This document shows positions 2,742 through 64,000 of a stretch of DNA of 64,000 nucleotides, one piece after another (position 1 is the stretch's first letter; each line of letters starts with the position of its first letter). Below the pieces are notes generated by a model that ran no database searches, was not told where the DNA came from, and saw only the letters and a list, made by a program, of their open reading frames with translations. The DNA comes from Nitrospinota bacterium (GTDB lineage Bacteria > Nitrospinota > Nitrospinia > JACRGO01), in assembly GCA_016212295.1 (NCBI GenBank), contig JACRGO010000237.1:215-64214 (forward strand). Reading direction: 5' to 3'. The translations under genes and the position numbers were made by a program.

Positions 2742-3749
2742 CTATGGACATTCCTTGCAAATATCCGGACAAAGATTGTTTTTAAAGGAATCCATGAAAC
2801 TCTTAAATAATTCTCCCCTTTTGATTTCGTCGAAGGGGTTTTCAAAAAGGTTTCCGAAATTGAACACTGTTGGGTCCATCCTCATGCAGCAAGGGGTGAC
2901 GAAGCCGTCGTACGTGATGAATATGCCCTTGCCGGGCCACCAGCATTCCCGGAACCTGGGGCTGGATCCGCTGAAACTGAATTCAAGCCCGTTCTTGCCG
3001 CAGATTGATTTTAATTGATCTCGCAGACGGATTTCCAATTTATCGTCCCTCAAAGGCGCTTGGACGGATTGAATGCGCTTCCTGATCTTCCGGTAATCCT
3101 CATTTATGCTTGCGGATTTATAATCGGGATTATACTGGACTGCCGCTGAAAACCGCATTTTATCCATGCCTAACTCCCTGGCGAAAGGCGGTATGTACGC
3201 CAGGGTATCTATATTTTCCTTTGAAATAACGGTTTGAAAGGACAGGGTAACGGAAAGGTTCCCGGCCCTTTTAATTTCCACGGCCATTTTTATGTTTTTC
3301 ACTATTTTTTCAAAATCCGCCCCTCTCCTGAGCCGCTGAAACAGGCTCTTTTCATTGGCGTCGAAAGAGATGACGAGTTCGTCAATGCCGCCCAAGAGTT
3401 TTTCCAGGTCAATCTTGTGAAGGTTCATGCCGTTGGTGCAGGTCCTTGCCCTTATGCCTTCCTCTTTAAGATACAAGGCCATGCCGGCTATTTCCGGGTT
3501 GAGCAAGGACTCGCCCAGGCCAATGAGCGAAACGTCGGTCAAAAAACGGTTGCCTTCGATTAATTTCCTCAAATTGGCCGGCGTGAGATGGCCTCTCCTT
3601 TGGGAGGCCAGCCCCTCGTTGTTGCAACTCCGGCATTTAAGATTGCAGAGCGTGGTGGGCTCAATGTGGGCATGGTAAGGGTATGCGCCTTCCTCTTGGT
3701 TGCTGTTCTGGGTTTTATATTCAGGCATTTTGTTTCGCTTAAGGATCAA
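2742..3749 (-). CDS. radical SAM enzyme with a C-terminal SPASM domain
   Basis: 335 aa. It has the CNLKCRSC (Cx3Cx2C) radical SAM cluster motif near the N-terminus and a Cys-rich SPASM-like C-terminus (TPCCM...CPDICKECP). Confidence 0.8.
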   Translation of the reverse strand: MILKRNKMPEYKTQNSNQEEGAYPYHAHIEPTTLCNLKCRSCNNEGLASQRRGHLTPANLRKLIEGNRFLTDVSLIGLGESLLNPEIAGMALYLKEEGIRARTCTNGMNLHKIDLEKLLGGIDELVISFDANEKSLFQRLRRGADFEKIVKNIKMAVEIKRAGNLSVTLSFQTVISKENIDTLAYIPPFARELGMDKMRFSAAVQYNPDYKSASINEDYRKIRKRIQSVQAPLRDDKLEIRLRDQLKSICGKNGLEFSFSGSSPRFRECWWPGKGIFITYDGFVTPCCMRMDPTVFNFGNLFENPFDEIKRGELFKSFMDSFKNNLCPDICKECP

Positions 3750-15015: not shown

Positions 15016-15062
15016 AGAAACAGAAATAGTTAGCCACGGATGTCAGCGGAGCGGCGTAGGCG

Positions 15063-15165
15063 CAACCAAAAGGAAGAAATAACCACAAAGGACACAAAAA
15101 ATTCACAAAGAACACGGAGAAAAAACTTTGCGGTCTTTGTGGCTACTTTGTGCGCTCTGTGGTAA
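15063..15165 (+). repeat. 'CACAAAG' intergenic repeat, copy A
   Basis: About 95 % identical over roughly 110 bp to 18172-18280. It contains direct CACAAAG(G/A)ACAC units followed by inverted CTTTGTG units, giving hairpin potential. Confidence 0.7.
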
Positions 15166-15251
15166 AAAAATTTTAAGGTATCGCATCGCGGATTGCAAAT
15201 CCGTAACGGACAAAAGATATGCGCCGCTGTATGTTCAGAAAATAGACGGGA

Positions 15252-16711: not shown

Positions 16712-18280
<1,569 letters not shown>

Positions 18281-18394
18281 ACTTTACTGTTATTAACAGT
18301 CTCATAATAGTAGCGACATAACACACCCCGGCCTTCGGCCACCCCTCTCAAGAGGGGAATTTTTATGTATGTTCTATTTTGAGACCGTTAATAA

Positions 18395-24738: not shown

Positions 24739-24916
24739 GGGACTTGGAATTTAACAATAAACCAGGACACGAAGAGAAAAGATTCATTTCTTTCCGCGAG
24801 GAGTGATTCCCTGTAGTCATTAAGTTTTCCTTCGTGATCTTTGCGCCTTTGTGTGAGACCATATTTTTAATGGGTCTTATTCGTGTGTTTCGTGAATTTC
24901 GTGTTTAAGGATTTTA

Positions 24917-25187
24917 AATATCTGGGGTATGCACTTAACTTGAGTAGGTGCCATATATTGTGGGTGACGATGAAAAATATCGGACTTTATCCGAACTCTG
25001 ATTTTCATGGGCGTAAAGCGCATTTTAAACCCCTCAAAGCAGCAACTGGTTGTTTTTTTCTGCGAAACCCAAGAATAAAGCATGTAAATTTAAAAAAAAT
25101 TCAATGAAACCTGCGTGGAAGCTTTAGAATAAGAAACACCACATATTGTGTTTACTCAAATCAAGTGCATACCCCAGTTAAATATTT
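24917..25187. mobile_element. MITE-like element with roughly 50-bp imperfect terminal inverted repeats
   Basis: The left arm 'aaatatctggggtatgcacttaacttgagta...' (24917-24968) is the reverse complement of the right arm '...tactcaaatcaagtgcataccccagttaaatattt' (25139-25187) at about 80 % identity. There is no coding capacity. Confidence 0.6.
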
Positions 25188-25559
25188 TGAAATGAAATAA
25201 CTTTTTCTCTCGTTCCCAGGACTCGCTATGATAAAAGGCTTTGGACGGAAGTTTTTCAAAGATCTAAAATGTTGCGAATTTTTGTATTTTACCTTCCCTG
25301 GTTCTCAATAACTTGACGACCTGAACTTATCGCCCTTCTGCGGGCTTTAAAGAATTGAGCAGCGAACATCCTACCAATATCGTTCAAGCCCTGTAAAGGC
25401 GATACAATGAAGGGCAGAGAGCTTTCCCCTTTATATGGCATATTAGTATTTAGAAAAATATAATGATAATAAGCAGATATGCCAATAATCATTCGTGGGT
25501 ATTTGCGTGTATTGACCAAACCAAAACTTTGTGCTAGCATTTTCTAACTGTCTAATAAC

Positions 25560-26200
25560 TTGGAGGAGAGTACTCACATGTCCAAGAAAGATATTCGCAA
25601 GTTTTGCGATAATTACAAGAGGCTTGAAAATAACGGGACATATCGATGGAAGATTCTCGACGAGACGCTACTTGGAATATGTGACGCATACCCTTCCCAT
25701 ACGTCTGCTGACGAAGTCTTTTCTAAGGTCGCCCTCATAAATCGCAGCTATCGCGCTAACCTACACTTCACAGGTAAAGATACTGAGGAAAAAATTGCGA
25801 AGGCATTTGTGAAAAAGGGCCTCGACAAAGTGCTTGCCCCCTAAATAGCATAACTGCATTAACAGCCGAAAGCCTGCCCACGTTGGTAAGAGCACATGGC
25901 AGTGTTGTCAGTATTGTGAAAGATGTCACAAGTCGGATTCACAACTCCTTCGCATCAAAGTATCTTCACTTTCATTTTCCGCGCGTCGTTCCCATATTTG
26001 ATAAATTCGCTTACAATGAATCATGGCGACTGGCTCCAGTGCCGAAAAACGAGTGGCAAAGGTGGAGCAATTTAATAAACTATAATTACGGAACTCATTG
26101 TACATCTGTAGTCGCCTTACTCACTGAGCTAAAGGCTAATGGGGTCAATTCGCCGAACATCAAATTGATAGATATACTGCTCTATGAAGGGATTGGCTAA
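25560..26200 (+). CDS. hypothetical protein(s) in AT-rich islet, two ORFs possibly one frameshifted gene
   Basis: ORFs 25560..25844 (94 aa) and 25883..26200 (105 aa, TTG start) are in different frames. The second frame stays open upstream across the junction, which is compatible with a single roughly 210-aa product broken by a frameshift. No recognisable family. Confidence 0.3.
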
Positions 26201-26360
26201 CCAGTTGACCCTTCGGTTCCTCCGCACTGTTTCGCTTCGTCGCCGAAGGTGGCTTGCGAACCAGGCGTTAGAAACAGGCCGCCAGCCGGGCTGTCAAGCC
26301 TGCGGCTTGACGCCCGCTTGTCGGCGGCTCAACGCCGCATTAAGTGTTTTGGAGCCGTCA
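26184..26360 (+). other. GC-rich, hairpin-dense leader element upstream of the DUF3800-like gene
   Basis: About 65 % GC in a roughly 35 % GC context. Nested stems include ccttcgg...ccgaagg and gtcaagcc-tgc-ggcttgac. The ORF-track translation here reads as nonsense. Confidence 0.4.
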
Positions 26361-27269
26361 ATGAATCAAGTTATTTTTGTTATGGACGAATCGGGGGCAA
26401 AGGGCTACTCCGACAACATTGAAAGCACGCCAGGTGAGCTTGGTGTAATGGCTGGCTATCTCATTCCAATCGACTGTTTGAGTTTGGTTAAAAGTGAGTT
26501 AGATGCAATTCGATCAAATTTTTTTTCAGAAGGAAAAATTCACATTACAGACTTGCTCCCGCAGCAGGAAGAATTACGAAAAAACATATTTGATTACTTC
26601 CTCCAAAGGAAAATATATTGGGTTTACGAAGCCGCCTATGTCCAAGGTTATTTTGAAAATGCCGATTTTCTTAATCAGCTAAACAAGAAAGCCCATGACT
26701 CAAGACGATCAAATATACAAGTGTCATGGAAGGAAACAAAAGAGCTTCTTCATTCCGAGCTATTTCAAGGAGCCTTCGGGAAGGCTTTAGCATTTTGCCT
26801 AGATTACGTAGGTAGACCATTCGAGCTCAGAGTCATTACCGACCGAACGGATAACTCAATCATTAAAAAATTTCAGAGCGAAGCCGACGCCCTCCTATCT
26901 GTGGGAAAAGAAAAAATCCACGAAACTACGGGCTTCAATAAAAAAACGAAGCAGATTGTAAGGGGAAGCATTGCAACAAAGGTTTCTGCTGACACAGATG
27001 CAATCGGAGATTTTTCTGGCATTACATATTCCATTGCTTGCGAAGACTCTTCTCTTACCCTTGCCGCCGATGTGCTAGTAAACAGCGCCCATTATCACCT
27101 TAAATTACTGCAATCAGAGAGTACTGGAGTTGCTCTCAATGTTGCATCCTCAATCTCTAATCACCAACTGAGTAGCTTGGTGTACGGGGCATGGGACAAT
27201 ACGGAAGGAAATTATTTTGCTGATGCCATATTTATGCACCCCACGCAAAAGAGCAGAGACAACACCTAA
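26361..27269 (+). CDS. DUF3800-like protein
   Basis: A likely true start ATG at 26361 has GGAG 10 nt upstream. The N-terminus 'MNQVIFVMDESGAKGY' matches the hallmark 'iYiDESG' motif of DUF3800 proteins. The gene is AT-rich. Confidence 0.5.
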   Translation: MNQVIFVMDESGAKGYSDNIESTPGELGVMAGYLIPIDCLSLVKSELDAIRSNFFSEGKIHITDLLPQQEELRKNIFDYFLQRKIYWVYEAAYVQGYFENADFLNQLNKKAHDSRRSNIQVSWKETKELLHSELFQGAFGKALAFCLDYVGRPFELRVITDRTDNSIIKKFQSEADALLSVGKEKIHETTGFNKKTKQIVRGSIATKVSADTDAIGDFSGITYSIACEDSSLTLAADVLVNSAHYHLKLLQSESTGVALNVASSISNHQLSSLVYGAWDNTEGNYFADAIFMHPTQKSRDNT

Positions 27270-27849
27270 CCTTACATTCAAGAGGGACAGGCCAGAAGCG
27301 GCCTGCCCCTCAATTTAACGTTAGGCATACGCTCTACCTATGGTACGAAGCGCGCTATAATTGCTTCATTAGTTTTGAATGGAGTCAGATCATGAACACA
27401 CAACTCTTATACATAAGGACGATATTCCTACATATTCTTTTGGGTCCTTCATTGCACGCGGCGGCGACATCTTGGACGGCTGGAATCTCCTTCTCAGAGA
27501 CGGCCCCAAGAAGGTTCACGGCGGGCTTGTCATTGTTCAAAGCGATACGCCGCATTTCATTCTTGACCTCCTCGTAGGCATCCACGCTGCAAACGACTCA
27601 CAGCAGACTGGGTCGGATTCATCGTTCAACGCCGTGAAAGCAGTGACGAGCCAGGGGCCACCGGCCCTCTCCGCGTCGACCCTTAGGAAAAAGAGGTGGC
27701 TACAGTTTTGGAAATAACCATGCCGGGCGCAATGGCATGCGGTCAAATGACGGAATGGTAAAGGGGTCAGAGGTTTGCAAGATCACATTATTTTGCCTCG
27801 TTGCCGAAACGCACACAATGTGTTAATCTCTTAATTTTGGAGGAGAGAA

Positions 27850-28128
27850 ATGAAAGCTAAATTAACTAAAGAAGAACAAGAAATATTGGGCAGTTTTGAA
27901 AAAGGAGAGTGGGTCCCGGTCAAGGACCTTTCAAAAAGAAAAGCCGAGCTAATGAGGTATGCAAGAAACACGTTAAAAAAAGACAAAAGACTAAACATAA
28001 GAATTTCCGAAAGAGACTTGACTGAATTGCGGAAAAAGGCGGTAAGCGAGGGATTGCCTTATCAGACATATGTTTCCAGTATAATTCATAAATTTGTCAG
28101 CGGCAGGCTGGTAGAGGCAAAAAATTAA
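27850..28128 (+). CDS. ribbon-helix-helix antitoxin (BrnA/CopG-like), orphan
   Basis: 92 aa. The 'KRLNIRISERDLTELRKKAVSEGLPYQTYVSSIIHKFV' segment is typical of BrnA-type antitoxins. No cognate BrnT-like toxin ORF is recognisable nearby. Confidence 0.65.
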   Translation: MKAKLTKEEQEILGSFEKGEWVPVKDLSKRKAELMRYARNTLKKDKRLNIRISERDLTELRKKAVSEGLPYQTYVSSIIHKFVSGRLVEAKN

Positions 28129-28340
28129 ACCGCCAACAAATCGCTCAACACCGGTGCCCATTACGCTCCGCTTCATTCGCACGGGTTAGCCAATCAGTTA
28201 TTTTCTGCCGCCCACTTTGGGGCTTAAATCTTTTTATTCCAGTTCCGGGGGCTGACGCCCCCGGCTATACGCTTTCGGCCCTCCGGGCCTAAAAAACATG
28301 CTGGAACAGCCTCACTGACTTATGGGTCAATAGGCATTTT

Positions 28341-28556
28341 CTAAACAAGTCTTTTTAAATCTTCAATAGAAAGATCAATTTTTTTTAGGATATTGTGCAG
28401 TGTCCCTTTTTTAAGCTCCTTATGGTTTGGGACCACAACCGAGATATTTTTTTCGAGGTTGTGAAGAAAAATATGGCTTCCTCTTTGGTGGTCCACCGTG
28501 TACCCTATTCTGTGTAGAGCTTTAACCACTTGCCTCCCGGAAAAGGTTTTGCTCAA
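28341..28556 (-). CDS. hicA: HicA-family mRNA interferase toxin
   Basis: 71 aa. The '[24 protein letters not shown]...[14 protein letters not shown]' segment matches the HicA/YcfA fold signature. Confidence 0.85.
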
Positions 28557-28768
28557 ATCGTTACCTCGATTTCGCTGACGCTGACTCCCGGCCTTGTTTT
28601 TATTTCATTAAGCTTTTCAAGTCCCTCAAGATAACACAATATTGCTTCCTTGGCATTTTCAAGCGCCTGCTCAGTGGTTTCACCTTGGGTAAAGCATCCA
28701 TCAAGGGCAGGAACCGAAACCGTAAAACCTCCTTCGACTGCGCTTTCCAAAACAACGCTGAATTTCAT
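28553..28768 (-). CDS. hicB: HicB-family antitoxin (UPF0150-type, short form)
   Basis: It starts at MKFSVV (the second Met of the ORF). The '[30 protein letters not shown]' segment is the HicB N-domain signature. It overlaps hicA by 4 nt. Confidence 0.8.
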
Positions 28769-29457
28769 CCGGCAAACCCTCCTTTTTCCCATTTCGTTTT
28801 TGCATTCGTGAAAATATTATTCCCAATTTCAGGGAAAGTCAATAGGAAATTTGCGGTAACACTTTAGCTGTTACTCTCGCTCCCAGTGTCCTCCCTGGGA
28901 GCGTCCGAGCTAAGATGCTTTTCACCTCAACTTTTTAAAAAATTATAATCATAACAATTTGTCTCTGCATTGCAAAATAGTCATGACAATTTGTCATTTG
29001 AATAACAATTTGTTATGATTTTTCCATGAAAAAGAGAGTTTGTGAAAGACATATCATTATGGGACAAAATAGAGTATCTGAATTACGACTCCACCAAGGA
29101 CAGGAAAATCTTTTTGGAGGAAAGATAAGTTTAAAAATTGGAAAAATAAGGTCAAGGGTATATACGATATTTATTTTCACAATAGACTGCATATCGATTC
29201 CGTCCAACTCGTTCTCAATTTGAGAAAAAACCTCCAATACGGGATAGCCAATGCCTTCCCGTTCCCGTTTTTTTAAACTCCCTTTCCTGCTAAACCGGCC
29301 AGGGGCCGGGACCCAAAAGGGCTTCCGCCATGATGCCCATAAAATGTTTTAGCCGCGAAAAAAGGATATCTTGCGAACACAGGGTCTAACAGATGACGCG
29401 GATTGACACGAATTTCCGAACGTAATAATATCAATATCTTGAACGCCAAATTTCACC

Positions 29458-46055: not shown

Positions 46056-46212
46056 CAAAGAAACAGTTGCAGGAGTCAGACATTGATCTGGAACAAAAAT
46101 GGGCTTGCCTAACAACCGCCTCCACGGCAGACGCTTGACTGTCATGCGCCTTGCAAAGTTCCGCAAGCCTTACGCCAGCCTGCGCTTGTGAGGCGAGCGT
46201 TAGATTTCAAGG

Positions 46213-47067
46213 ATGCCAATGGCTATTCACTGGTCAGAATCCGAAGTCGAGGCAGCAGTTGAAGACTACTTCAACATGCTCCGCCAGGAGTTGACCGGTC
46301 GCAAATACAACAAGACCGAGCATCGCCGGGCATTAATGGAACATCTGAACAATCGGTCAGAAGGTTCGGTTGAACTGAAGCATCAAAATATCAGCGCCGT
46401 TCTGATCGAGATGGGTATTCCATACATTGACGGATACAAGCCACGTTCAAACTACCAGCGCACACTACTGCCCGCAGCGGTGTCTGATTTCCTCGCCAAT
46501 CACCCCGAGTTTCACGCGCTGTTCCAAGAGGACTCCGAGGTCGCGCCATCCATCCCATCGGTTGCGGATTTTCTCGCGGCGATGGAAGCTCCGCCAAGGC
46601 CGGAAAACAAGGGCAGCTCAACGATCGCGGAGACTCAAGCTATCTACAATCCCGCCGGTGTGAACTACCTGGAACGGGAGGCGCAAAATCATTCACTAGG
46701 AGACGCCGGGGAACAATTCGTCATCAATTTTGAGCGGGCCAGGTTAATCCACGCCGGGAAGGAATACCTCGCGGATCAAATTGAGCAAATATCAGTCTCG
46801 GTCGGCCCTTCCGCTGGGTTTGATATCCGGTCGTTTGAAGAAAACGGAACAGACCGCTTTATCGAGGCAAAAACCACGAAATACGGCAAGAGCACGCCAT
46901 TCTTCGTTACTCCCAACGAGTTGGATTTCTCACGGGAGAATGCAACCCGGTACTTTCTATACCGTGTCTTCAAGTTCCGCGCGGAACCACGCTTGTTCAC
47001 TTTGCATGGCTACTTGCAGGATCAGTGCATACTCCAGCCGTCGCAGTACTTGGCGAAGCCAGCGTGA
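46213..47067 (+). CDS. COG3183-N-terminal-domain plus DUF3883 (restriction-endonuclease-like) protein
   Basis: The N-terminus 'EAAVEDYFNMLRQELTGRKYNKTEHRRALMEHLNNRSEGSVELKHQNISAVLIEMGIPYIDGYKPRSNYQ' matches the non-catalytic N-domain of HNH-type predicted restriction enzymes. The C-terminal half 'GDAGEQFVINFE...GFDIRSFEENGTDRFIEAKTT...FFVTPNE...YFLYRVF' fits DUF3883. Confidence 0.55.
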   Translation: MPMAIHWSESEVEAAVEDYFNMLRQELTGRKYNKTEHRRALMEHLNNRSEGSVELKHQNISAVLIEMGIPYIDGYKPRSNYQRTLLPAAVSDFLANHPEFHALFQEDSEVAPSIPSVADFLAAMEAPPRPENKGSSTIAETQAIYNPAGVNYLEREAQNHSLGDAGEQFVINFERARLIHAGKEYLADQIEQISVSVGPSAGFDIRSFEENGTDRFIEAKTTKYGKSTPFFVTPNELDFSRENATRYFLYRVFKFRAEPRLFTLHGYLQDQCILQPSQYLAKPA

Positions 47068-47129
47068 AATCTGGCAATGCGTTGCAACTGGCGTATTGAC
47101 ACGATTTGATCTTTTTTATAACATGAAGG

Positions 47130-47714
47130 CGAAAATATATCCCCCCTGCTTCTTCGGAAGCAGGGCGCGAGGCCGGGGATGCCGATTTCGATACCCTCAT
47201 CGCCTGCGCCTTCAACTATGACGCCCATTCCTCGGAATTCGATAAACTGGGCCGGATTCCGGTGCTCAAGGCCAGGATGAACGCCGACCTGCACATGGCA
47301 GGCGACCTCAAGAACACCGGCAAGGGGAACCTTTTCGTCATCTTCGGAGAGCCGGACATTGACATCCTCGACGCCGGGGACGGGCAGGTGCGGGTGAAGA
47401 TCAACGGCGTGGATGTCTTTCATCCCAACACCGGAGAGATTCGCAGCGACGGCGCGGAGGGGATCGCCTGCTGGTTCATCGACACCGATTATAACGAAGA
47501 GAGCTTCTTTGTCCGCCACGCCTATTTTCTCGGGGCCAACGATCCCTACAAGTCCCTCAAAACCACCCTCAAGGCCGAGATCAACGAAGAAGCCTGGGGT
47601 ACCCTGAACAGCGACACCTCCCGCCCCTTCCGGAAACCAAAATCCGGTCGGATCGCGGTAAAGGTGATCAATCATCTGGGGGATGAGGTGATGAAGGTGT
47701 TTCGTCTGAAATGA
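47130..47714 (+). pseudogene. orphan C-terminal fragment of a DNA methyltransferase (type III Mod / type IIG-like)
   Basis: The frame opens right after an in-frame TGA with no start or N-terminal catalytic domain. The C-terminal 'EAWGTLNSDTSRPFRKPKSGRIAVKVINHLGDEVMKVF' resembles the conserved tail of adenine-specific Mod-type methyltransferases. It is GC-rich, unlike its neighbours. Confidence 0.4.
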
Positions 47715-47744
47715 TAGAATTTTGTATTTTAGAACATTGAAAGA

Positions 47745-49258
47745 GTGTTCACGGGAGTGTCTGCCATGCGCCTGACTATCGAACAGCTCCAAAGCATTAT
47801 GAACTCCACGGAAGGGGAGCATTTCGAATTCAAGGAAGCCAAAACCAAATTTCATTTTGAGAAGCTCCTTAAATATTGTGCTGCTTTAGCGAATGAGGGT
47901 GGTGGGGAAATGGTTCTCGGCGTTACCGACAAACGGCCAAGACATGTGGTTGGAACTCAGGTGTTTTCTCAACCGGAACGGACGAGAAGCGGGCTTATTG
48001 AAAAGCTGCGTTTAAATATCAATTTTGATGAAGTCCAGCATCAAAATGGGCGCGTCCTGATTTTTCACGTTCCCTCTCGCCCCGTCGGAATGCCGATCAA
48101 GGCGGAAGGCGTTTACTGGGAACGAAAAGCCGACAGCTTGGTTCCTATGTCTGAAAATCGGCTTCGTGAAATCTTCTCCGAGGCAGGGCATGACTTTTCA
48201 GCCCAGATATGTTCAGGCGCAACAATAGCTGATTTGATCCCGGCGGCCATTGAAGATTTCCGGAACCGGTGGCTTATCAAGTCAAACAATCCCGGTTTAT
48301 CCACGTTGAGCCATGAACAGCTTCTTTCCGACGCCGAAGCGGTTGTTGATGGTTATCTTACCTATGCCGCGTTGATCTTGTTCGGAACAAAACAAGCTCT
48401 GGGCAAGTGTTTAGCCCAATCCGAGGTGGTTTTTGAATATCGGTCTTCCGATGCCTCAGGTCCAGCCCAGCATCGAGAAGAATTTAGAGAAGGGTTTTTC
48501 AGTTATTATGAAAAATTATGGAAGTTGATTAATTTGCGTAATGATATCCAGCACTTTCAGTCAGGTTTATTCCTGCTGGATATCCCGACTTTTTCGGAAC
48601 GGCCAGTTCGAGAAGCTGTCTTAAACGCCGTCAGCCACCGGGATTATCAGCTCGGAGGCAGCATCTTTATTCGCCAATATCCAAGGAAGTTGGTGTTTGA
48701 GAATCCAGGCGGATTTCCGGTTGGCATAAATCTCGATAATATCCTTGATCGCCAGTCGCCGCGCAATCGCCGCATCGCGGATATTTTTGCAAAATGTGGT
48801 CTTGTGGAGCGTTCCGGTCAAGGCATGAACCTGATGTTTGAGCGAAGCATTCAGGAAAGCAAAGCAATACCTGATTTTTCCGGCACTGATCAGTACCAAG
48901 TGATATTGAAAATCGCCTTCAACCTCGATTACAGACACTAGTGTCAAAAGGCGTCATCGAGCGCTTTGGCCGTGGGCGCGGTGTTAAATACATTCTCAGC
49001 CGTCAATATTATCAGATGGTAGGGAGTAGGGGTGTATATACGAGAAAGAAGGGATTGGATCGTGAAACAAACAAGACCTTACTTTTGAAACATATCGTTG
49101 AAAATTCCGAAACCGGAAGCCGCCTCAAGGAACTGAGACAAGTGCTTCCTTCGTTATCAATGCCACAAGTGCAAACCCTGCTTAGAGAACTTAAATTAGA
49201 AAGAAAAATTCATAAAACTGGAGCTACACGAGCGGCTCTTTGGCATGCCAATCTTTAA
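47745..49258 (+). CDS. Schlafen/AlbA_2-domain ATPase-like protein (COG2865 family) split by a frameshift at 48941
   Basis: ORF 47745..48941 has an N-terminal AlbA_2-like 'EGEHFEFKEAKTKF...' and a HATPase_c_4-like middle. ORF 48941..49258 (GTG start overlapping the TAG) carries 'GVIERFGRGRGVKYIL' and a wHTH, which normally forms the C-terminus of the same polypeptide. Confidence 0.6.
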
Positions 49259-63185: not shown

Positions 63186-64000
63186 CTATTGGTCCTTCTT
63201 TTTTTGGCGTTTTTGGTGGTCTTTAAGTTGCCCGTTTTTTTGGGTTATATAATTTTTCTTGTCCTGGGATAGGGGGGCGGAGGCAAGCCAGGATTCCAAT
63301 GATTCAAAGGACCAGCCTGAAAAGAAATCCTCCTTGAGCGCGGCCTCCAGTTTTTGTCCCGCCTCTTTGACGTCTCGTCCCAGGGCGGCAAGGGCTACGC
63401 ATTGCAGATACAGGGCAATGGCCCGGTCTTTTCTTTCCCCGGCTATTTTCAGAGTTTTGGGAATAATGGCCAGGGCATTTTCATATTGATTCTGAATGAT
63501 ATAAAACTCGGTAAGGTTGTTGTAAGGCTTGGCGTCTTCCGGATGGAGTTCAATGGCCTTGTAAAAGTCCTGTATGGCCTTGTCATACTCCTTGAGATAT
63601 CTATAGGCGCTGCTCGTGTAGTCGCGAGCCGAGGCGTCTTTCGGATCGAGTTCAATGGCCTTGTCAAAGTCCCGTATGGCCTTGTCATACTCCTTGAGAT
63701 CGATATAGGCGTCTCCTCTGTTGCTGTAAGCCGAGGTGTCTTTCGGATTGAGTTTAATGGCCTCGCCATAGTCCCGTATGGCCTTGTCATACTCCTTGGA
63801 CAAGCGATAGGCATTTCCTCTGTTGTTGTAAACCGAGGCGTACTTTGGATCGAGTTCAATGGCCTTATCATAGTCCCGTATGGCCTTGTAGTACTCCGTG
63901 AGATTGCTATAGACGCTTCCTCTGTTGTTGTAAGCCGAGGCGTATTTTGGATCGAGTTCAATAGCTTTGCCGTAGTCCCGTATGGCCTCGTCATACCTCT
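63186..64000 (-). CDS. TPR-repeat protein (partial, continues beyond the window end) built from near-identical 102-bp tandem repeats
   Basis: 'YDKAIRDYGEAIKLNPKDTSAYSNRGDAYIDLKE' units repeat at least five times. The same frame stays open to position 64000. The overlapping ORF 63449..63994 in another frame is repeat-driven and spurious. Confidence 0.65.
   Translation of the reverse strand, partial: RYDEAIRDYGKAIELDPKYASAYNNRGSVYSNLTEYYKAIRDYDKAIELDPKYASVYNNRGNAYRLSKEYDKAIRDYGEAIKLNPKDTSAYSNRGDAYIDLKEYDKAIRDFDKAIELDPKDASARDYTSSAYRYLKEYDKAIQDFYKAIELHPEDAKPYNNLTEFYIIQNQYENALAIIPKTLKIAGERKDRAIALYLQCVALAALGRDVKEAGQKLEAALKEDFFSGWSFESLESWLASAPLSQDKKNYITQKNGQLKDHQKRQKKKDQ

Follow-up and report, generated by a model that had tools for sequence, protein, structure and literature searches.

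The GC-rich, hairpin-dense DNA directly upstream of the start codon at 26361 is probably a decayed and doubled attC region, lying between two gene cassettes of a small, integrase-less, CALIN-like cluster in a Nitrospinae chromosome. The element proper spans 26195-26345 (151 nt) of the window, by which we mean the whole 64,000-nucleotide stretch of DNA that was analyzed, and it is most likely a site on the DNA that folds in single-stranded form rather than a transcript. We arrived at a decayed and doubled attC from the left boundary, the right boundary, the canonical partner attC downstream, the cassette-borne relatives found at other loci, and the motif signals inside the element. The comparisons show where the element lies, where it begins and ends, that it is homologous to attCs at other loci, and that a canonical partner attC stands downstream. 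The features used in the argument are listed here by position in the window.

25578-26200, + strand: gene of the upstream cassette (cassette U), HI_0787_N family (PF27257), frameshifted; from the fused translation and tblastn
26195-26201, + strand: GGCTAAC, R''-type inverse core (RYYYAAC, one mismatch), holding the stop codon TAA (26198-26200)
26195-26210, + strand: simple site S1, GGCTAAC-CA-GTTGACC, with a 2-nt spacer
26195-26273, + strand: attC-1, putative degenerate attC of cassette U, made up of S1, the CCTTCGG/CCGAAGG stem, and S2; best model placement, 3.4 bits
26255-26273, + strand: simple site S2, TGCGAAC-CAGGC-GTTAGAA, with the canonical 5-nt spacer
26255-26345, + strand: attC-Y, putative second attC-like unit, from S2 to S3; from motif coordinates and a shuffle test
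26264-26336, no strand assigned: 73-nt imperfect palindrome GGCGTT...AACGCC with the tip GTCAAGCC-TGC-GGCTTGAC at 26293-26311; from a stem search and folds
26327-26345, + strand: simple site S3, GCTCAAC-GCCGC-ATTAAGT, with the canonical 5-nt spacer and ATT in place of GTT
26339-26340, + strand: cassette junction A/TT, left edge of the downstream cassette (cassette D); from alignment with loci L006 and L007
26340-26360, + strand: conserved 5' UTR of cassette D, with the ribosome-binding site GGAG at 26351-26354; from alignment of upstream regions
26361-27269, + strand: 302-aa gene of cassette D, hypothetical protein with a conserved N-terminal DESGAKGY motif; 100% identical to P0001
27264-27326, + strand: canonical attC of cassette D, ACCTAAC-CTTAC-ATTCAAGAGGGAC...CCCCTCAAT-TTAAC-GTTAGGC; from model R3, fold, and motif scan

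Extent, composition, and folding of the element

The first-pass annotation had described 26184-26360 as a block of about 65% GC in surroundings of about 35%. A contrast of this kind exists but is smaller: the GC content is 60.5% (0.605) over that interval and 0.629 over the trimmed core 26195-26345, vs 43.3% (0.433) in the upstream and 41.7% (0.417) in the downstream gene. The core lies within the original interval, both ends of which belong to the flanking genes, and the element is accordingly narrower than first drawn. At the left, 26184-26200 is taken up by the last codons of the upstream gene, which is read in another frame and stops at 26198-26200, and at the right, 26340-26360 (the last 21 nt) is the conserved 5' UTR and ribosome-binding site of the downstream cassette.

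Folding of the stretch is strong. As RNA, the + strand of 26184-26360 folds at -85.6 kcal/mol, beyond chance (z = -5.06, with none of 200 shuffles as good). As DNA, the - strand of the same interval folds with z = -3.77, and again no shuffle was as good. Both stems named at first reading are present, the one formed by CCTTCGG (26210-26216) and CCGAAGG (26243-26249) and the other by GTCAAGCC (26293-26300) and GGCTTGAC (26304-26311), with TGC between the arms.

The stretch does not code for the downstream protein: all 35 aligned homologues (~300 aa) begin at the ATG corresponding to 26361, and the in-frame translation upstream of that ATG is arginine-rich nonsense. Blastn-short found no second copy of the element within the 64-kb window, a repeat search of the window yielded no family that includes it, and a plasmid search in 'distant' mode returned nothing matching it.

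The upstream cassette and the left boundary

Two short ORFs upstream of the element (25560-25844 and 25883-26200) are one gene with a frameshift at about 25838-25841, within a run of five C. The fused two-frame translation matches two proteins of 207-208 aa (P0121 and P0122) at 61-65% identity over 100% of their length, and in tblastn the match falls into two pieces, 25578-25841 and 25838-26197, that are read in different frames. In an attC, the R'' inverse core coincides with the cassette's stop codon or follows it closely, and GGCTAAC (26195-26201) stands at this place with one mismatch. Homologues of this gene in three independent loci (L053, L056, and L097) terminate in the identical GGCTAAC. 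The L097 contig stops 9 nt past this motif, so the sequence downstream of it can be read only in L053 and L056, and in both of these GGCTAAC opens an attC of ~59 nt that forms an imperfect palindrome.

The L053 attC reads GGCTAAC...CCGGGCGTTAGGC, and its GTTAGGC end lies 5 nt ahead of the next ORF. This site (4619-4677 of L053) was recognized at 20.8 bits (E 0.006) by our covariance model R1, whose training did not include it. Homologous cassettes of the upstream type begin G/TTAGCCAAA ~20 nt before their ATG, where the slash marks the junction and the TTAGCC complements GGCTAA. Such cassette ends and starts are exactly what a circularized integron cassette would show and, by the architecture described in PMC4889954, are an attC signature.

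The downstream cassette and the right boundary

The downstream ORF (26361-27266) is 100% identical to the NCBI protein HZA01_17030 (P0001, from a Nitrospinae MAG) and has 143 homologues of ~300 aa spread over many phyla. The label "DUF3800-like" that this gene had been given is not borne out: Pfam assigned the 302-aa protein to no family at E <= 10, DUF3800 included, except for a chance match to TM225, and the precomputed Pfam entry is '-' for nearly all of the homologues. The N-terminal D-E-S-G motif, invariant in the homologue alignment, is presumably the sole reminder of DUF3800.

We located the left edge of this cassette by aligning the window with the relatives in L006 (90% identity) and L007 (76% identity). 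The junction reads ...CAACGCCGCA/TTAAGTGTTTTGGAGCCGTCAATG in the window (GCCGCA before the slash), ...TTCTACG/TTAGGTGTTTTGGAGCCATCAATG in L006, and ...TTTTTTCG/TTAGGTTTTTCGGAGGTATCAATG in L007 (TTTTTCG before the slash), and A/TTAAGT of the window aligns with G/TTAGGT of L006 and L007. Similarity between the window and L006 starts exactly at the TT of TTA(A/G)GT, and cassette D therefore starts at 26340. In L006 and L007 the base ahead of this TT is the G of an attC R' core, and an attC of 60-70 nt precedes the junction. The window and L006 have in common only the last ~21 nt ahead of the ATG, and the GC-rich block is missing in front of the 302-aa gene's relatives in all of L001, L002, L003, L006, L007, and L008.

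The closer relatives of the 302-aa gene are cassette-borne, directly followed by attCs in L001 and L003 and by cut attC starts in L006 and L007. Scanned with the alignment of the 302-aa protein, a genome collection yielded 44 loci (24-62% identity). None of the 44 has an attC-like site by the strict attC scan, and the five loci that were read with their flanks show non-cassette contexts.

A canonical attC follows the downstream gene

The stop codon TAA of the 302-aa gene lies inside ACCTAAC, the R'' core of a canonical attC at 27264-27326. Model R3, which was trained only on other loci and holds no window sequence, scored this site at 43.4 bits (E 4.9e-9) on the + strand vs 8.7 bits on the - strand, and the strict motif-and-pairing scan also picked it up. 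Its DNA folds with z = -7.5 on the bottom strand and -4.8 on the top strand, with the R and L boxes both paired. The covariance models used here (R1, R2, and R3) are home-made from attCs in the loci studied and contain only 7-11 sites, mostly of one subfamily. For the structure imposed on them, paired cells amount to 85% and the covariation lies above that of all 500 shuffles, and R1 found further sites at the ends of neighboring ORFs in L001 and L003. Taken together, the junction motifs at left and right and the canonical attC at 27264-27326 mark the genes on both sides of the element as integron-type cassettes, and the element is the sequence between them.

Internal architecture of the element

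The left (R''-L'') and right (L'-R') sites of an attC both take the form AAC-spacer-GTT, in which the spacer is normally 5 nt. The element has three such motifs (S1, S2, and S3), one more than the two simple sites that define an attC. In 20,000 shuffles, three or more AAC-N(2-6)-RTT motifs within 151 nt arose with P = 1e-4 and at least two exact AAC-N-GTT motifs with P = 0.003.

The left-hand unit, attC-1, may be compared with the attCs that follow homologous genes. An alignment of the L053 and L056 attCs to the window by MAFFT was uninformative, and we used local alignments with shuffles instead, in which the core of attC-1 resembled that of the L053 attC with p = 0.014 and that of the L056 attC with p = 0.001. 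The end of attC-1, CCAGGCGTTAGAA, is comparable to CCGGGCGTTAGGC of L053, and its GTTAGAA (26267-26273) has one mismatch to the R' core GTTRRRY and stands 73 nt ahead of the point where the conserved cassette sequence begins. Taken alone, attC-1 (26196-26272) does not surpass shuffles in folding (z = -1.3 and -0.4). Its minimum-energy fold leaves the R box unpaired.

The right-hand unit, attC-Y, folds well and recombination cores are its weaker part. As DNA, 26256-26345 (90 nt) folds with z = -4.0 on the - strand and -4.7 on the + strand into a long hairpin of L box and tip in which the R box is unpaired. The cores TGCGAAC (R''-type) and ATTAAGT (R'-type) are off consensus and unpaired in the predicted fold, and the core found at the actual junction (26339/26340) is ATTAAGT, without the G, where L006 and L007 have GTTAGGT. 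The attC-Y core nevertheless resembles the attC ahead of the homologous cassette in L007 (p = 0.001, local alignment vs shuffles). A single-strand hairpin with R and L boxes both paired was found neither for 26196-26272 nor for 26256-26345. The attC models gave no match covering 26255-26345; their best score for the element was 3.4 bits at 26195-26273 (R box alone), and nothing in it reached E <= 10 in searches of the whole window.

We read the 73-nt palindrome at 26264-26336 as part of a second attC-like hairpin, namely its L box and variable terminal structure, since the ends of the palindrome have GTT...AAC polarity, which suits an L box and not an R box. Two other readings of these 73 nt were tried and rejected. 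As a canonical attC, the palindrome fails by the GTT...AAC polarity of its ends on both strands, and as a self-sufficient ORF-less cassette it fails because the circle would hold just one simple site.

From these signals we infer that the element would consist of two overlapping attC-like imperfect hairpins built on three AAC-N-(G/A)TT simple sites. In this arrangement, attC-1 (26195-26273) would be the upstream HI_0787_N cassette's attC in decayed form, and attC-Y (26255-26345) would reuse the middle simple site and end at the junction where the 302-aa cassette begins. A pairing of GTTGA (26204) with TCAAC (26329) is possible as well and would enclose all 151 nt in a single branched structure, and the predicted folds leave the internal parse ambiguous between this structure and two hairpins.

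Alternative explanations

The alternative that survives best, although we consider it unlikely, takes the branched structure at face value as one long (151-nt) attC of the upstream cassette. Its R'' GGCTAAC (26195) and L'' GTTGACC (26204) would pair with L' GCTCAAC (26327) and R' ATTAAGT (26339), both inner hairpins would make up a variable terminal structure with branches, and the GTTAGAA at 26267 would be incidental. The minimum-energy DNA fold of 26195-26345 does close, on either strand, with GTTGA/TCAAC around both hairpins; the right end has the canonical L'-5 nt-R' layout, and long attC-like regions are known in these arrays, such as the 142 nt at 3843-3984 of L053. However, the homologous attCs of L053 and L056 are just ~59 nt long, and their 3' end (CCGGGCGTTAGGC) matches CCAGGCGTTAGAA in the interior of the window's element, not its outer end. 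The pairing of R'' with R' would moreover be limited to TAA/TTA, with spacers of 2 and 5 nt, and no attC model aligns the element in this way.

We regard it as rather improbable that the element is a degenerate attC (26195-26273) joined at a GTT junction to an unrelated palindromic insertion of 65-73 nt, such as a miniature mobile or REP-like hairpin. The relatives of both flanking cassettes do occur without the 73 nt, and the 8-mers that flank the palindrome are alike and would form an imperfect direct repeat (GCGTTAGA / GCATTAAG). The 19-mer tip GTCAAGCCTGCGGCTTGAC also recurs at the tips of many unrelated metagenome hairpins, including a MITE-like inverted-pair repeat in sample Ga0247804. 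A metagenome scan with this 19-mer returned 40 loci, none of which has the same flanks (nothing matched beyond 19-21 nt) and none of which carries the same 73-nt palindrome; 11 of the 40, all from sample Ga0247804, are head-to-head inverted pairs of an unrelated ~90-nt repeat. Against an insertion stand this failure of any locus to match beyond a 19-21-mer and the single copy in the window. The outer stem of the palindrome also uses bases of attC-1, which leaves it no terminal repeats of its own, and its 3' end has the L'-5 nt-R' layout of an attC, with a core that resembles the L007 attC.

A structured RNA, whether a small ncRNA or a 5' leader that regulates the 302-aa gene in cis, was among the candidates of the first-pass annotation and now looks very unlikely. 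The strong RNA fold (z = -5.06) would suit it, as would the element's place immediately 5' of the gene on its coding strand, where any read-through transcript would include it. The Rfam scan suggested at the time gave no match in 26184-26360 at the gathering threshold or even at E <= 10, a tRNA/tmRNA scan of the window found none, and 26184-26360 contains no site resembling a sigma-70 promoter or an intrinsic terminator. The block is not conserved upstream of any relative read, including the 90% identical one in L006. The opposite strand, in addition, folds comparably as DNA. Hairpins of attCs hamper translation of downstream cassettes, and those of the element would also form in read-through mRNA, where any effect on expression would be a by-product; nothing points to a dedicated RNA function. 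High GC content and stems are properties of these DNA sites.

A leftover of GC-richer host DNA, from a disrupted gene or an intergenic region, caught between two acquired genes of low GC can be set aside as scarcely credible: the core genes of the window are similar to the element in GC content (0.53-0.60), but the boundaries match, to the base, cassette junction motifs known from other loci, simple-site motifs are enriched, the translation is nonsense, and nothing similar was found in plasmids or elsewhere in the window. A fragment of an insertion target, the third of the original candidates, came nearest to our reading in that an attC region is where the downstream cassette joins at the 3' edge of the element, although no match to a disrupted gene appeared. 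The first-pass annotation had also named what would count against its proposal, namely homologous loci without a conserved structured element and a match to an unrelated disrupted gene; the former is what we see at six loci, and the latter was not found.

Genomic context and comparison with known systems

The element lies in a low-GC island (24739-29457; GC 0.428 vs 0.487 for the window) between an aspartate kinase gene and a DUF2142 gene, and this island also carries HicAB and a CopG-like antitoxin. The rest of the window is ordinary chromosome (ATP synthase gamma, BacA, aspartate kinase, DnaJ), with core genes of 0.53-0.60 GC. We found no integrase in the 64-kb window by Pfam on 30 ORFs or by tblastn with an IntI1 query, the latter serving as a lead only. 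Elsewhere in the window, an attC-like site adjoins a candidate phage-defence gene.

The architecture of attC sites (R and L boxes, spacers, and terminal structure) and the definition of the CALIN, at least two attC sites within 4 kb without a nearby integron integrase, follow Cury et al. (2016, PMC4889954). Our data for this definition are the strong attC at 27264-27326 and the degenerate sites at 26195-26345 and 28135-28199 (5.1 bits). Like a CALIN, the locus has a strong attC and, ~0.9-1 kb upstream on the same strand, attC-derived sequence, with no integrase detected in the window, and its cassettes encode unknown functions and toxin-antitoxin pairs. It is unlike a CALIN in that just one site would clearly pass a model threshold, and IntegronFinder might call a lone attC. 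The locus is close to the CALIN of IntegronFinder, though perhaps just one of its sites passes the threshold.

Compared with an integron attC (59-base element), the element follows a promoterless cassette ORF whose stop codon falls in an RYYYAAC-type core, contains AAC-N5-GTT simple sites and imperfect palindromes, and ends at the (G)/TT junction that opens the following cassette. Homologous cassettes elsewhere bear attCs that the models recognize at matching positions. It differs in having three simple sites, not two (doubled or fused), a left hairpin that no longer has an attC fold, a junction core (ATTAAGT) without the G of GTT, and a score of 3.4 bits with home-made models.

Fused or hybrid cassettes with truncated attC sites have been described for resistance integrons. 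As in those, one of two adjacent attCs would be partly lost here and the neighboring units welded together. Unlike them, the remnant retains a complete L-box hairpin and right-hand simple site and shares a simple site with the preceding attC, and no ORFs are fused. The VCRs of Vibrio are long chromosomal attCs of ~120-130 nt with one long stem, highly repeated within a genome. Like the VCRs, the element is longer than 100 nt and is GC-rich and structured relative to the cassettes; unlike them, it is branched and single-copy in the window.

Origin, activity, and significance

In a working attC, the bottom strand self-folds when replication or conjugation exposes it as a single strand. The R and L boxes, once paired, are bound by IntI, whose strand exchange falls between G and TT in the R' core and excises or inserts the cassette. 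The element has probably become partly or wholly inactive in such recombination, as suggested by attC-1 not folding like an attC, by the ATT core at the junction, and by there being no integrase in the window.

We infer that the two hairpins arose by a joining event. The simplest and likely route is a crossover or a (microhomology) deletion in which the R' of attC-1 was fused with the L'' GTT of a neighboring attC, and this event would have removed the R'' of that neighboring attC together with any cassette body between. There is a slim chance that the doubled site is the record of an unusual integrase crossover of this kind (R' core with the L'' GTT of the next attC), leaving two hairpins that share a simple site and a 73-nt ORF-less 'micro-cassette'. 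A weaker alternative would make the 73-nt palindrome a distinct functional module, for example an insulating hairpin in cassette leaders, with the 19-nt tip recurrent in unrelated elements.

The element is an ordinary, well-known kind of DNA site, worn and doubled, in which the shared-simple-site architecture alone is mildly novel. Its recognition removes a false lead, since a block upstream of a start codon that looked like a riboswitch or an sRNA is better read as a site of DNA recombination. Integron-type cassettes, including one textbook attC, are in addition documented in a Nitrospinae chromosome whose window has no detected integrase. As an example of how attCs may decay and fuse once orphaned, the doubled architecture opens no new question and is a small curiosity for integron specialists, in which the shared simple site may record an unusual crossover.

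Cassette boundaries around the 302-aa gene

A textbook attC, whose model score was strongly strand-asymmetric, closes the cassette that carries the 302-aa gene:
27264-27326, immediately 3′ of the gene: attC, 43.4 bits, E 4.9e-9, under a model trained on other loci only

The 62% identical relative of this gene (locus L003) is preceded on its 5′ side by a collapsed attC (~2925-3000, GCCTATC-14 nt-GTTAGGC), followed by ~49 added nucleotides and then a relic TTAGGT immediately before the ATG. This locus is another instance in which sequence has been added after an R′ core, ahead of the place where the ancestral cassette began.

The HI_0787_N-family gene of the upstream cassette is cut into two ORFs by a frameshift at 25838-25841, within a run of five C, and is either a pseudogene or the product of an assembly error. 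Cassettes of its homologues (loci L053, L056, and L097) share a conserved 5′ start, G|TTAGCCAAA, which is absent ahead of the ATG in the window's own copy and with which GTTAGCCAAT at 28186-28195, the reverse complement of 26191-26202, agrees. The presence of a start-like motif at this position and its absence before the HI_0787_N ATG hint at rearrangement, although a match of 9-12 nt may be due to chance.

The 19-nt hairpin in metagenome loci

The window's 19-nt hairpin GTCAAGCCTGCGGCTTGAC (26293-26311) recurs in metagenome sample Ga0247804 as part of a ~90-nt repeat that also includes a CCCCTCC...GGAGGGG hairpin (loci L059, L065, L069, L074, L076, L077, L082, L090, L093, and L094). Copies of the repeat form head-to-head inverted pairs in almost all of these contigs, a MITE-like arrangement. 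The same 19-mer was also found at the tip of unrelated hairpins, for example directly past a tRNA 3′ end in locus L091.

A second cassette-like spot and other repeats in the window

At about 46-49 kb we found a second palindrome resembling an attC, which scored just 11.8 bits (E ~1) with R3, our independent attC covariance model:
46107-46205, 3′ of a low-GC 205-aa ORF: attC-like palindrome, GCCTAAC...GTTAGAT

The ORF starting 7 nt past it (span 46213-48941) is a hit to PDC-S36, one of the candidate defence families in PADLOC (E 3e-105), and is followed by a Schlafen/AlbA_2 protein. Together, the palindrome and this ORF look like a further small cassette spot with defence-type genes.

Repeats were also present elsewhere in the window, those at its edge being typical of TPR-type repeat proteins:
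15048-15175 and 18159-18286, either side of a ~3-kb GC-rich segment: direct repeat, 128 nt, 88% identity
18291-18393, adjoining the direct repeat: near-perfect palindrome, 103 nt, TATTAAC...GTTAATA
63414-63996, minus strand, window edge: tandem 102-nt (34-codon) repeats

Other features of the low-GC island

Two further elements were located within the island that holds the cassettes:
24919-24962 and 25137-25180: inverted repeats, 44 nt, 77% complementary, 174 nt apart
28245-28290, plus strand: match to the Rfam family Acido-Lenti-1 at 49.3 bits, against a gathering score of 37

The inverted repeats, at the island's left edge shortly past the aspartate kinase gene, look MITE-like. The Acido-Lenti-1 match, here in a genome that carries the label Nitrospinae, has a weak attC-like site on one side (28135-28199, 5.1 bits) and the end of hicA on the other. 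The occurrence of Acido-Lenti-1 within a cassette cluster may be of interest.
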